From Candidatus Obscuribacterales bacterium (GTDB taxonomy: Bacteria > Cyanobacteriota > Vampirovibrionia > Obscuribacterales > Obscuribacteraceae), in assembly GCA_965228855.1 (NCBI GenBank), contig CBDDIJ010000005.1, positions 960,001-1,024,000 on the forward strand: 64,000 nt of DNA, written 5' to 3'. Made by a program: the position numbers. Shown here one piece after another: positions 36,001 through 42,000 of this stretch; the first letter of the stretch is position 1; each line of letters opens with the position of its first letter.

Positions 36001-39000
36001 GATGGACGCAAACGCTATCGCGAACGCTGCGGTCAACGCATCGAAATCAGGCGCAGGCGAGCAGAATCAACAACCAACTCAGAATGCGCAGGTGAATGGA
36101 TCTGTGCCTGGAAACAGGGAAGGTGCGCCGCCAGATCAATCGCAAAATCCATGGGGCGGCGACGACCAACAAACAAACACCGGCTCCCGGTTTAATGCCG
36201 CTGCGCATGGTTGGGCACCACCGACCTCCACAGGCTCGCATCAAGCTGTTCAGGGTCCCTCCGGCAGGGTGAATCAGGGCATGAACGGAGCACAGCCGCA
36301 AGCGATGAACCAGGGCATGACCGGCGCACAGCCGCAAGCGATGAATCAGGGCATGACCGGCGCACAGCCGCAAGCGATGAATCAGGGCATGACCGGCGCA
36401 CAGCCGCAAGCGATGAACCAGGGCATGACCGGCGCACAGCCGCAGATGGGCGAGAATCAGCCGCGTCAACCGCATCCCGGCTTCCCCCAACCCAAATCTG
36501 GACAGTCTTCTGAAGGACCTTCACCTCACGGGTTTCCGCAACAAGACAACCAGGGTTTTCAACTGCCGCCGAATCAATCTGGCGCGCAGCGTCCTGGCTT
36601 TCCCTCTCCGCAAATGGCACCATCAAACCAAAACGTTCCGCCTCAAGGATCTAACTCCGGTTTCCCGCCGGGTTCACAAGCAAACCCGGGATTTCCACAA
36701 GCAGGTCAGGGAGCCACAGGCGCGCATCAGTCGGCACCAGGGATGGTACCACAGCAAAATGGAATAAATAGTTTTTCCAATGGCGCGCCAGGCACAGCTC
36801 AAGTAAATCAGAAACCACCAATGCCCGATCCATGGGGAGAAACCGTCCCACCGGATGCTGCCGTCGCGCAAATGACCGAATCCGAAACTGGCGTGAAACA
36901 CATGGCGCCATGGCAGGATAAGACTCCGCCAGTTGGTCCTGTCGGAGGACCGATGAATCAGCCGCTCTTCCCGCCCTCGCCAGTGGCACAGCTGGCGGCA
37001 AGCTTAATGGATGATCAATCGACGAAGATGACTACCGATCACAGTTCGGATGCCTTTGCGCCGCTGAGCGGAGGATCGTCAAAACCGATACCGGCATCTG
37101 TTCAGGCGCTTATGCCACCACCACCGCCGTCGCGTTCCCAACAAAATATGCAACCGCCGGCGCCACCAGTGAGCGTGCCACAAAATACACCACCAAGCCT
37201 GTCACCAGGTTCGAATCCAGCAACGCCACAAAATGTTGCACCCGTTGCCCCGGCCAGCATGAGACCAGGTATGTCGACGCCCCAACCGGGCATGCCGACT
37301 TCCATGCAGCCTGACGGAGGTCACTCACTGATGGGCGGCATGGACGGCAGGCTGCCAGCTCAGCCGCTGCCGAAAGCGCCGCAGCCTCCACCATTCGAAG
37401 AGCCTCAAGTTTTAGGCAGCAACGAGCCATCCCCGTATCAAGGCACCACTGCTGGCGCTGCAATGCAGAAAACGAAGCCGACATTGAGATCAAATACCGA
37501 TTGGCATACCGACTCCGAACCCGTAATCGATGAAGCTACAGCTGCAGCGCCAGCACCAGACTCAGCAATAAAGCAATTCGCTGAGCGAATGAAAACCAAC
37601 ATGCCGGAGCCTGGGCAGCACTCAAATACAGACACAGGTAAGGGCTTTAAGAGCTACGAGCCGGTCTCTCTTGCGGAGTTGAATGCGATCAAAACTCCTG
37701 CTCCATCACAGACAAAACCGACGACGGAAGGATTGTCTACCGCTATTCCACCGGGGCACCAGACAACTGGTTCTGCGCCTATCTACAATAAAAAATCGAG
37801 GACTCGGTCCAACGAGGACAATGAACTTCCGGCACCGAGCTCAGCCCGCGGCAGTAGTGGCGCCCGCGGTGCAGGCACTTCAATGAGATTCAACACCAGC
37901 CGTGGTGGCACAGACACGAAAAAGGCAGTGCTTATGACATTAGTCGCTGTCGCTATTGTTGTCGTCATCGGTATAGTAGGTTTCATGCTGCTGCAGCACA
38001 CAGCTCAAAACGGTCAACAGACGACGGCAATTCAGGAAAGCACAAGCGAAACAACCGACACCTCTACGCCCTCGGAAGTTTCGACTTCGACAGAGCCTGA
38101 ACCATCATCAAGCTCTAAGAGTGTAACCAGTTCATCTTCGTCAACGAGCGCTTCAACAGCTACCAAACCGGCACAGAAACCGCAGCCGACGCCAAGCAAA
38201 AAAGAAGCAGCAAAGAAACCTCAAGTCGCCAAAGTTACACCGAAAAAACCGAAAAAACCTAAAGCTGTCGCCAGGACGCCGGCAGCAGAGTCGGACACTC
38301 CGTCCATTCCGCGCAGACGCCGGGCGTATTCCACGTACGATTCCTACTACAGCGACGGCAACTAGAGTGACCACGCCGCAACTCGACTGACCGACCGCGA
38401 CTGGATTGAACGCGCCATTACTCGACTGACCGCGCTCGCGCGCGCTCGATGAATACAAAAACGGCCGGATTTTTTCAACTTCCGGCCGTTTTCTCATTCA
38501 TTTCATTACAGTGATTAGCGCATGCGCCGACGTTCTCTCGCGATCTCCAGCGCCTTGAGGCGAGCGATCGCTCTGGTCAGTGCCAGTTCCGCCACGTGCG
38601 TGTGCAGCTTGTCCGCCTTCTGAGCGGTTTCCGCTTCTGCTCTGGCTTTCGCCTGATTGGCGCGGGCTTCGTCAATCTCGGTGCCCAGCTCGGCAGCATC
38701 AGTAATGACAGTGACTGTCAAATCTTGATCGCTCGTATAAACATCCCCAGGAAGCGCAGATTGCTTGTTCGCTACTTCCAGTACACCGCCGATGATGGCT
38801 GCAGACTTCTCTTCGCCGGCTTCCCAATACTTCAACGCGTCTATACCAAGAGCGGTCACAAGCGGCTCATGCTGCGGCAGAATTGAAAGCTGTCCATCGC
38901 GTGCCGTAGCTGTCACCTGCGACACCGTGGTATCGAGTACGATGCGCTCCGGAGTGATGATCTTGAAATTGAACGTGGCGGCCATGGTCCTTTAGCTCCT

Positions 39001-42000
39001 ATCTCCAACCGGTGAGGGTCGACTTGGTTGCGCAGTCTTTGTGCGCTCGTTACCTTTTATTTTTTACGCGTGGTCTTTTTAGCGGCAGTGGAACGACCGC
39101 GCGTGCCGGTCGTTCCACCCGTGGTCTTCTTGCTTGTCGACGCTTTCGTGGACTTCGAAGTAGCGGCGCGCTTGCTCGAAGCCGCTGCTGAAGCGGACTT
39201 CGATTTAGACGCGCCTGAAACTACGCTCAAACGTCCTGCAGATTTGCGAGGAGTGTGTTTGATAATGCTGTCGACAATACCGTACTCGAGGGCTTCTTGA
39301 GCAGAAAGGTAATAGTCGCGTTCGATATCCTTGCGAATTCTTTCGCGATCTTGTCCAGTGCATCTGTGAAGCAATTCAATCTGAGCGTTTCTAAAGCGTT
39401 GGCCCTGAAGCGCCTGGATTTCCAGCGATGTGATGTCGCCTTCAGCTTCCCAGATGGTCTGGTGGAACATCAAGGTCGAAAACTCATACGCGGAGCGCTC
39501 ACCCGTGCCCGACGCCAAGATCTCACAAGCTCCCGAAAGGGCATGCCCCAGACAGATTGTGTTGACCTTGGGTGGAATCGAGTGCATGATCGCGATAATG
39601 GCATCGGCGTTGTATCCATTGCCACCTGCTGAGTTGATGTACAAATTGATCGGTGTTTTCGGATCGCGCTCTACTAGACGAAGCAAACGACGGATAACCG
39701 GCGTGGCAACTTCGTTTTCAAGTCTGCCGAAAACGTAAACGTCTCTGTTGGACAACTCATCGTTTTCTTTTTTCTCGGCGACCTTGGATTCCTGATTTTT
39801 CTTGCTCATTGAAGCCTCGATGGGAAGGACTGAAACTGTTTATCTCAATTAGAGAGATTGCAGTCTCTTAGCTTCTTCTCTTGCTTCAGCGATGCTTCCT
39901 TGCATGTAAAACGCTTGCTCAGGCATGTCATCGCACTTACCATCCAGGATCTCTTTAAATCCGGAAACGGTGTCTTTGAGCGAAACGTACTTACCGGGAC
40001 GACCTGTGAATACTTCAGCTACGTGGAACGGCTGGCTGAGGAAGCGTTGCAGTTTACGTGCGCGAGTAACGATCAATTTGTCGTCTTCGGAGAGTTCGTC
40101 CATACCGAGAATCGCGATGATGTCTTGCAAGTCTCTGTAACGTTGGAGAGTCTGCTGCACACCACGGGCGACATCATAGTGCTCTTGTCCGACGATGTCG
40201 GGCTTGAGAGCGGTAGAAGTCGACGCGAGCGGATCTACAGCTGGGTAGATACCGAGTTCGGCAATCTGACGGGACAATACAGTCGTTGCGTCAAGGTGAC
40301 CGAAAGTGGTTGCCGGAGCGGGGTCTGTCAAGTCGTCGGCAGGTACGTATACAGCTTGAATCGATGTGATCGATCCGGACTTGGTTGAGGTGATGCGCTC
40401 TTGAAGTTCGCCCATCTCGTTACCCAGTGTCGGCTGATATCCTACAGCTGAAGGCATACGTCCGAGAAGCGCGGATACTTCGGAACCGGCTTGTACAAAT
40501 CGGAAAATGTTGTCGACGAACAACAACACGTCTTGCTTGGACACGTCACGGAAGTACTCGGCTACGGTGAGAGCCGAAAGACCGACGCGCATACGCGAAC
40601 CCGGCGGCTCGTTCATCTGACCATAAACCAGAGCTACTTTATCGAGAACGCAACCGCCCTCGATCTTGGAGTCCTTCATCTCGTGCCAGAGGTCATTTCC
40701 TTCACGAGTTCTTTCGCCCACGCCGCCGAACACCGAGTATCCACCGTGGTGCTTAGCGATGTTGTGGATCAATTCCATGATGATAACGGTCTTGCCGACG
40801 CCGGCTCCACCGAAGAGACCGACCTTACCGCCTTTGATGTACGGCTCGAGGAGGTCGACAACTTTGATACCTGTTTCGAAAACGACTGTTTCGGTTTCCA
40901 AATCGGTGAGTTCAGGAGCGTGGCGGTGAATCGGCCAGTGCTCGGCAGCGTCGATGGGACCCATTTCGTCCACAGGCTCACCAAGTACGTTCAAAATTCT
41001 TCCGAGAGTTCCAACGCCGACCGGAACGGTGATTGGTTGTCCGGTGTTGACAGCGAGCATGCCGCGGGTCAAACCGTCGGTCGAACCCATAGCCACTGTT
41101 CTGACGCGGTTGTCACCAAGCATCTGTTGAACTTCTACGATAACTCTTCTGTCTTCGCCCGCAGGGTTCTTCCCTGTGATTTCGAGCGCGTTGTAGATTT
41201 CAGGCAAATGCCCGCTAGCAAACTCGACGTCAATAACGGCGCCGATAACCTGAACTACTCTGCCTTGCGTCCCTGTAGGCGCTTCTAGAACTGTGCTCAT
41301 GTCGTCTCCGTGTGGTGTCGGCGGACCGTTTTCAAGGTCTCGCCAGTGGTCATGTACGAGAAAAACCCGATCTTACCAGCAAAGGATACAAGTCCGAGCC
41401 TACTTTCCCGGCGTCGTTTATGATACTTTTCGTATGCTAGATGTTTTTGTTTACTTTAGAAAAATTGGCGCCCTTTCTTACTCCGCGTTAATCTGGTGGA
41501 AGATCCAAAACTAAATCGAGTTCTTTCCCATTTATTCAAAATGGTGGCATTGGTCGGTCTGGGTACAGCCGGCTTCATGATCGTCGAAGGCTGGGGTCTT
41601 CTCGACAGCTTGTTTATGTCGGTCACGACCATAGCAACGGTTGGTTACGGCGAGGTTCATCCGCTTACTCCGGCCGGACAACTTTTCGCAATATTCCTGA
41701 TATTTTTCGGCGTCGGCGCTTTCCTCTACATCGCGAGCGACATGGTGTCGCTCGCTCTCGAATTGAGACTCGGAAGAAATATGAACAAACAAATTGTCAA
41801 GTTGCACAATCACCAGATCATCTGCGGATTCGGCAGAACAGGTCAAGAAGTAGCCAGTCAATTCCGTATAAATAAGATCCCGTTCGTTATCATCGAATTG
41901 AATTCAGCAACAGCCCTCCAGGCGGAGGAGGCAGGGTATCTTGTCATCGAAGGGGATGCTTCAGCCGACGACGTGCTGATGCGCGCGCAGGTTGAAAAAG

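Follow-up and report, generated by a model that had tools for sequence, protein, structure and literature searches.

A ClpP-like gene inside the atpD-atpC unit of Obscuribacterales: a candidate peptidase with a rebuilt, acidic S1 pocket

A gene for a divergent ClpP-family peptidase lies between the genes for the F1 beta and epsilon subunits of ATP synthase in the window (the whole stretch of 64,000 nucleotides [nt] that was analyzed), and our leading, though tentative, explanation is that it encodes an active, specialized serine peptidase of the ClpP fold, produced alongside these two subunits and serving the ATP synthase. Three open reading frames (ORFs) were found side by side on the minus strand: atpD (39849..41300), the first gene of the unit, coding for F1 beta (483 amino acids [aa]; TIGR01039, 828.7 bits, above cut-off); the ClpP-like gene (39057..39809; 250 aa, P0001; PF00574, E = 2.8e-41); and atpC (38515..38985), the last gene, coding for an F1 epsilon subunit with a basic C-terminus (156 aa; TIGR01216 [above cut-off], PF02823, and PF00401). 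Both atpD and the ClpP-like gene are single copy in the genome. This is the arrangement described in the genome-wide survey's note, except that the gaps, given there as 40 and 72 nt, measured 39 and 71 nt. A terminator-like hairpin, rich in G+C and with a U run after it, closes the unit (38450..38500, minus strand; -25.5 kcal/mol, z -7.65, with 0 of 200 shuffles equally stable); its loop was too long for the terminator scan, which missed it.

Across the loci of the order, the median gaps were even shorter (11 and 20 nt), the junction with atpD measured 0 nt or overlapped in 30 of 101 cases, and a TAATG stop-start overlap was present in 17 of 89 loci. Gaps of this size leave no room for a promoter, and the ClpP-like gene is built into the atpD-atpC unit. 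Hairpins of -15 kcal/mol or better were seen downstream of atpC at 34 of 88 loci, versus 9 of 89 for atpD and 2 of 89 for the ClpP-like gene, and a sigma-70 promoter scan returned 2 sites versus 2.0 expected by chance. With respect to codon usage, likeness to the alpha, beta, gamma, and c subunit genes placed the ClpP-like gene at the 98.8th percentile and the housekeeping clpP at the 96.5th among 5344 ORFs. We are highly confident that this is a real gene co-expressed with atpD and atpC.

Of 107 Obscuribacterales genomes, 102 have an orthologue, whereas none was detected among 294 genomes from elsewhere in the class, and the order atpD, ClpP-like gene, atpC was kept at 101 of 102 loci, the remaining locus being cut at a contig end; conservation in the order, as the survey had proposed, is thereby borne out. 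Four of the five genomes lacking the orthologue also lacked an atpC match, and the fifth had an atpC cut at a contig start; the locus is therefore probably unassembled in these genomes. (Obscuribacterales are non-photosynthetic relatives of cyanobacteria.) In outgroups, atpD and atpC were directly adjacent in 4 of 5 loci, indicating that the pair was ancestrally adjacent and that the ClpP-like gene was inserted into its middle. The divergent gene upstream of atpD was likewise retained: of 68 loci, 55 have a K+ channel gene there and 11 a DUF1292 gene (66 in all). Gene order around the locus is generally static in Obscuribacterales, and the fixed position between atpD and atpC is therefore weaker evidence for a link to F1 than it appears.

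The ClpP-like paralogue is under strong purifying selection, as tight as that on F1 beta. More specifically, dN/dS of its core ranged from 0.000 to 0.077 (10 pairs), comparable to 0.008 to 0.069 for atpD; median identity over 89 loci was 73% for the core versus 61% for epsilon; and 58 of 165 core columns were invariant. Near-universal retention of a single-copy trait, together with selection as tight as this, indicates that the gene does something the order cannot lose. A pseudogene is excluded by these dN/dS values and by an invariant catalytic triad, as is an inactive subunit of the ClpR type, which is defined by loss of catalytic residues. Regarding a phage origin, viral contigs gave 46 pattern matches, none of them a relative, and the phage ClpP-related head maturation protease was rejected as an assignment (NF045542, 63.3 bits versus a cut-off of 120; the flanks are atp genes).

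The catalytic core (aa 22-185; 39255..39746, minus strand) holds, by alignment, the triad, oxyanion hole, sensor, a rebuilt S1 pocket, and the handle strand. Using ClpP reference positions for the triad, oxyanion hole, and sensor (PMC12383707), the Ser/His/Asp triad suggested by the survey's note was confirmed: S92, H116, and D165 fall on the catalytic residues of solved ClpPs, and all three, like G63 of the oxyanion hole (G63/G93), occur in each of the 101 orthologues. The sensor E163-R164 does not vary either. What that note overlooked is the most important trait, an S1 pocket that has been rebuilt and made acidic. In ClpP, this pocket is hydrophobic, being formed by Ile71, Met75, Met99, Phe102, Pro125, Leu126, and Met150 (PMC5404560), which align in that order with G65, D69, G93, E96, T118, I/L119, and Q143 of the ClpP-like protein. 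Six of the seven residues are replaced, with Gly65, Asp69, Gly93, Glu96, Thr118, and Gln143 invariant (101/101 and 120/120 sequences), such that the hydrophobic pocket of canonical ClpP is gone; acids at both 69 and 96 occurred in 0 of 146 non-family ClpP representatives. Judging from pocket geometry taken from alignments rather than from model measurement, the two glycines would widen S1 while Asp69 and Glu96 would render it acidic, from which we infer cleavage after Arg or Lys. The protein is probably an active hydrolase with a trypsin-like preference for basic P1 residues.

Family assignment is clear at the level of the fold: the PF00574 profile (141.8 bits versus a cut-off of 20.2) places the protein in the S14 family, and its model (pLDDT 87) superposed on solved ClpP chains with TM 0.90-0.93. 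A full-length fold, computed with 15 sequences, was of poor quality (pTM 0.39) and served solely to judge the disordered ends. Every NCBIfam ClpP model scored it under the curated cut-off (e.g., TIGR00493, 124.4 versus 308.6 bits). The housekeeping ClpP exceeds that cut-off (325.5 bits) and lies elsewhere on the same contig, in tig-clpP-clpX, as had been reported; identity between the two proteins measured 38%, next to the 39% to ClpP stated earlier. ESM Atlas returned generic PF00574 clusters only. The next-best full-length profile matches were P0122 (156 bits) and the P0123 group (154 bits), versus 333 bits for the family; a tree grouped both with the family, on long branches and with bootstrap unsettled, so this placement is unsure. 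These relatives (one member of which is labelled Gemmatimonadota) share short near-handle motifs with the family but lack its double-acid pocket. The sole P0123-type locus found (1.3 kb, ORFs read) held no atp genes, and a search for the genomic context of P0122 in 401 class genomes, JGI metagenomes, and the protein database returned nothing. In the literature searched, neither the gene nor its placement between atpD and atpC was described.

In canonical ClpP, an N-terminal beta-hairpin gates the axial pore (PMC12451819). Its place is taken here by a charged segment (aa 1-21; 39747..39809, minus strand) that alignment and pLDDT predict to be disordered: the residues preceding R22 are unconserved, 11% are hydrophobic over 101 orthologues, and pLDDT is <50 for aa 1-17; the gating hairpin is missing. 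The ATPase-docking cleft, in canonical ClpP a hydrophobic site for IGF/IGL loops, appears partly polar (D/N/R23, S/Q77, and S106), with L43, Y57 (86/101), I85, and I183 retained; this partial retention counts against the leading explanation. Cleft position I190 was taken from PMC6773864. At the other end, a disordered tail rich in Lys, Ala, Ser, Thr, and Arg (aa 186-250; 39060..39254, minus strand; net +18; pLDDT <50 for aa 192-250) is not conserved in sequence. The survey's note had stressed this long tail; it is present here (65 aa following H185), but its median length is 47 aa (net +12), it is <20 aa in 10 of 101 orthologues, and it shrinks to 2-4 aa in L114-L116, the three genomes of f2, the second family of the order. 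We therefore excluded the tail as the key feature; it is dispensable.

How far does this protein concern ATP synthase? One part of the survey's reading is supported: the atpD-atpC unit includes a dedicated ClpP paralogue, which is under strong selection and has kept its triad. The other part, its proposed action on or with the F1 head, is supported by no direct result. Given an active hydrolase with basic P1 preference, we consider the chances about even that its job is tied to ATP synthase. In the leading explanation, the protein would form its own heptameric ring, not fed by ClpX or ClpC, and would cleave after Arg or Lys through the widened, acidic S1. Its targets might conceivably be basic segments of ATP-synthase proteins, which the ring might trim or clear without ATP; examples would be the C-terminus of epsilon, rich in Lys/Arg, in subunits that are surplus or unassembled, or a basic peptide that binds F1. 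Were the target F1, assembly or control of the ATP synthase would have a dedicated protease. Epsilon carries a median of 5 Lys/Arg among its last 10 residues (90 orthologous loci), yet it is also basic-ended in outgroups without the ClpP-like gene (4 full-length epsilons, with 3-4 Lys/Arg among the final 10 residues). Compared with 4-5 outgroups, five positions in beta and two in epsilon are order-specific, and no feature resembling a substrate site stands out among them. The N-terminal leader of subunit c was set aside as a substrate because family f8, without the ClpP-like gene, has the same leader. In a bolder version, the trypsin-like ring would be co-translated with beta and epsilon, bind to F1, and cut off the inhibitory, basic C-terminus of epsilon or cleave a basic inhibitor peptide. 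This strikes us as quite unlikely; if true, proteolysis would switch ATP hydrolysis by the synthase irreversibly, a kind of control that we did not find described for bacterial F-ATPases.

The main rival, only slightly less probable than the leading explanation, is that seven copies stack handle-to-handle on seven housekeeping ClpP subunits as a second ring. ClpX or ClpC would then dock on the ClpP ring only, the new ring would bring Arg/Lys-specific sites to general proteolysis, and the atpD-atpC position would serve strong constitutive expression only; such a partner ring would be a new type of asymmetric Clp core. The anatomy, shared with Pseudomonas aeruginosa ClpP2, Listeria ClpP1, and Chlamydia ClpP1, fits this reading about equally well, and the invariant sensor and the similar codon bias of the two clpP-type genes favor it, as does the availability of a partner: canonical ClpP lies above the TIGR00493 cut-off in 14 of 15 order genomes tested, with partial matches only in the other (G012). 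The ring-pairing handle argues the other way: at the positions of Gly, Gly, and Gln in ClpP, it has invariant W120, E121, and D125. The handle is a low-confidence region of the model. Moreover, the housekeeping handle is the same as in outgroups without the ClpP-like gene, with no order-specific change matching W120-E121-D125 (14 in-group versus 15 out-group sequences), other lineages of the class have extra canonical-type ClpPs instead, and entry into the middle of atpD-atpC is left unexplained.

We consider it unlikely that the protein is a stand-alone, ATP-independent, TepA-like peptidase for basic peptides or disordered tails, unrelated to F1 and borrowing the atp promoter. The lost gate, the acidic pocket, the TepA precedent (PMC7406587), comparable Lys/Arg-rich tails on nine further ORFs among the 5344 of the genome, and a local gene order that is static whatever the function are consistent with it, but a mid-operon site with stop-start overlaps and no relocation at any of 101 loci with both flanks assembled, family f2 included, speak against it. 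Least probable is a ClpP-fold esterase/amidase, or a ring that binds a modified residue or a small cationic substrate, with a site built from the invariant new residues N64, Y66, N67, H89, C95, Y108, W120, Q135, and F139: many invariant core columns are unlike any ClpP, groove-lining Ile71 and Pro125 have become Gly and Thr, and W120 could cover the groove, but the triad, Gly63, the Leu126 equivalent, the sensor, and a ClpP fold match of TM 0.9 are all retained.

Compared with canonical ClpP (S14; Escherichia coli, Bacillus subtilis, and Coxiella 3q7h), the protein is alike in fold, triad, oxyanion-hole Gly, and Glu/Asp-Arg sensor at 33-40% identity. It differs in having no gating hairpin, two acids among the six changed S1 residues, Trp-Glu for Gly-Gly in the handle, what appears to be a partly polar docking cleft, and an added basic tail, in scoring under all NCBIfam ClpP cut-offs, and in being encoded within atpD-atpC rather than beside tig/clpX. 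In the literature considered, the residues after which ClpP enzymes cleave are hydrophobic or small; if S1 is indeed acidic and widened in a natural ClpP, basic specificity would be within reach of a modified ClpP barrel. TepA needs no Clp ATPase and is accompanied by a small partner protein. This cytoplasmic ClpP-like protease of B. subtilis, reported to degrade small DNA-binding spore proteins (PMC7406587), has a specialized substrate class, as proposed here, but in a sporulation context, and is likened by description. Partner rings are divergent paralogues beside a canonical ClpP, with an altered N-terminus and cleft and their own cleavage preference; the ClpP-like protein is likewise a divergent paralogue with an altered N-terminus, an apparently altered cleft, and a predicted preference of its own. 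P. aeruginosa ClpP2 has no usable cleft, an unstructured N-terminus, and its own specificity, and is active only with ClpP1 (PMC12451819); Listeria ClpP1 is a non-docking partner ring of canonical ClpP (PMC5361862); and the Chlamydia ClpP1 gene is separate from clpP2-clpX (PMC6773864). The passages considered place none of the partner rings in an ATP-synthase operon, unlike the ClpP-like gene, and report for them a Leu/Met preference (PMC5361862 among the sources), in contrast to the basic P1 preference predicted here.

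In the window, a ClpP-family ORF of 250 aa (39057-39809, minus strand) lies between atpD (39849-41300, minus strand) and atpC (38515-38985, minus strand), with intergenic gaps of 39 nt and 71 nt, respectively. Since the upstream neighbor, a K+ channel gene (Ion_trans_2 + TrkA_N + TrkA_C; 41496-42491, plus strand), is divergent from atpD, and the downstream neighbor, a 1323-aa ORF read by eye as a Ser/Thr-kinase-like protein (34394-38365, plus strand), is convergent with atpC, the three genes make up a unit closed at both ends. Downstream of atpC lies a hairpin with a U run (-25.5 kcal/mol), and none of 200 shuffles was equally stable. 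Across the order, strong hairpins were found 3' of atpC in 34/88 loci, and 3' of atpD and the ClpP-like gene in 9 and 2 of 89 loci, respectively. From this gene-unit anatomy, we infer that atpD, the ClpP-like gene and atpC are co-transcribed. The remaining F-type synthase genes, named from their translations, are on a different contig. Ranked by how closely codon usage resembles that of alpha, beta, gamma and c, the ClpP-like gene stands at the 98.8th percentile of our set of 5344 ORFs, some of which are false. The kinase-like protein has a long Pro/Gln-rich linker, within which a 12-aa repeat occurs about five times in tandem, as well as a membrane segment and a basic tail. Elsewhere in the window, three short repeats in tandem follow the signal region of an HtrA-like protease (28171-29538, plus strand; read by eye).

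Using the core (aa 22-185) as query (E 1e-40), we detected an orthologue, single copy in each case, in 102 of 107 Obscuribacterales genomes and in none of 294 genomes belonging to ten other families in the class; a profile search of 400 further genomes sampled from the phylum gave no match. Of the five order genomes that gave no match, four have no atpC either; in the fifth, atpC is cut at a contig start. In the 102 loci, all of which were fetched, atpC is downstream in every case and atpD upstream in 101; a contig end truncates the other locus. The gaps have medians of 11 and 20 nt, and 30 atpD junctions and 6 atpC junctions touch or overlap, which suggests translational coupling. The largest gaps belong to L117 (G040:C2:2596400-2596950), the sole locus with a frameshifted copy; the frameshift, near the core start, may be an assembly error. 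As atpD directly adjoins atpC in four of five outgroup loci (in the fifth, atpC has no atpD beside it) and the gene's place in the order is fixed, it most likely entered an existing atpD-atpC pair in one insertion and was then retained. In one genome of the outgroup family f8 (G112; L189/L242), atpC is apart from atpD, 3' of a PHA-synthase-like gene (read by eye).

The protein belongs to the ClpP family: its core model (pLDDT 87) matches solved ClpP chains with TM 0.90-0.93, and all 101 orthologues (L117 left out) share S92, H116 and D165, the Gly63 of the oxyanion hole and the E163-R164 sensor (reference positions from PMC12383707). The S1 pocket is altered. According to PMC5404560, the hydrophobic S1 residues of ClpP are Ile71, Met75, Met99, Phe102, Pro125, Leu126 and Met150; the housekeeping ClpP, which is encoded at a tig-clpP-clpX locus and is 38% identical to the ClpP-like protein, has V, L, M, F, P, L and L there, and the ClpP-like family aligns G65, D69, G93, E96, T118, I/L119 and Q143. 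The six altered positions are invariant in 101/101 loci and in 120/120 database proteins (the best 120 of 1283 matches). Acidic residues at both 69 and 96 occurred in 1/149 next-best representatives, itself a fragment of this family, and in 0/146 once three such fragments were set aside. Because two glycines and two acidic side chains surround the nucleophile, the pocket is predicted from the alignment to be wide, negatively charged and able to accept Arg or Lys, a specificity prediction that is sharp and cheaply testable.

Core dN/dS was 0.000-0.077 in 10 pairs, resembling atpD, and median identities were 82% (beta), 73% (core) and 61% (epsilon) in 89 loci with all three genes. The basic tail (median 47 aa, net charge +12 over 101 orthologues) is accessory, since it is <20 aa in 10/101 and 2-4 aa in the three genomes of the order's second family, f2. 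Two other kinds of ClpP-like gene were seen. One, in the window's genome (L003, 1441-2043, minus strand; G000:C2), is a third, very divergent gene that reaches no NCBIfam cut-off and is about equally close to the profiles of head-maturation proteases. The other is a small family (P0123, P0271-P0278, L279) with a signal-like N-terminal segment and one member labelled Gemmatimonadota, adjoining a PDZ-like gene in the sole locus found.

Our tentative reading is a peptidase linked to F1, its connection with ATP synthase being plausible though not proven. The reading is favored by the gene's placement mid-pair, the junction overlaps with their hint of translational coupling, the gene's retention everywhere and epsilon C-termini with a median of 5 Lys/Arg among the last 10 residues; however, outgroup epsilons are likewise basic, and order-specific positions number only five in beta and two in epsilon. 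Moreover, the divergent upstream neighbor is also fixed (K+ channel in 55, DUF1292 in 11 and neither in 2 of the 68 loci, out of 72, with enough DNA), so the region rearranges little. Neither neighbor was found near atpD/atpC in the five outgroup loci, and a shared promoter region could possibly tie K+ flux to the F1 genes. This observation concerns 41496-42491 and 42499-42822, both on the plus strand.

Several features of the synthase subunits were also recorded. In the window's epsilon, 15 aa are inserted after the beta-sandwich, a feature that most relatives lack or show in another form, and the window's beta has a 5-aa insertion missing from the consensus. In the main atp operon, subunit c (L201, G000:C3:288694-288990; L193-L220) carries an N-terminal leader of ~15-20 aa with an LIAQA-like motif, order-wide and in family f8 (L230, L233), and absent from other outgroups. 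Some order genomes (L205, L221, L222) encode an additional subunit c of a different kind, accompanied by separate a and b genes, in an arrangement that resembles the alternate (N-type) F-ATPase operon.

That the protein instead forms a second ring on canonical ClpP is only slightly less likely. Its docking cleft is polar in part (23, 77, 106) and retained in part (43, 57, 85, 183). The second-ring reading fits well with P. aeruginosa ClpP2, Listeria ClpP1 and Chlamydia ClpP1, described as divergent paralogues that serve as such a ring; the first two do not dock the ATPase, the Chlamydia protein is not preferred by it, and the Chlamydia ClpP genes are at separate loci. One point speaks mildly against this reading: the housekeeping handle does not differ between 14 in-group and 15 out-group sequences, whereas the ClpP-like handle is rebuilt, with strand W120-E121 instead of Gly-Gly and D125 instead of Gln. 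A peptidase that works alone on basic peptides in the manner of TepA (as described in PMC7406587), with no tie to F1, is unlikely, and a non-protease hydrolase acting on a small molecule improbable.

The protein qualifies neither as a canonical ClpP nor as ClpR or a phage head protease, and searches of a paper library, at the level of listings and abstract openings, found no description of the gene, its arrangement or a basic-P1 ClpP. Full-length members form one 50% cluster (333 bits; next match, 156 bits) among 1.84 billion representatives. In place of the N-terminal hairpin that acts as a gate in canonical ClpP, according to PMC12451819, the protein has a segment that is charged, unconserved and modelled with low confidence. 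The ClpP-like protein is a genuine new form of ClpP that defines the order.
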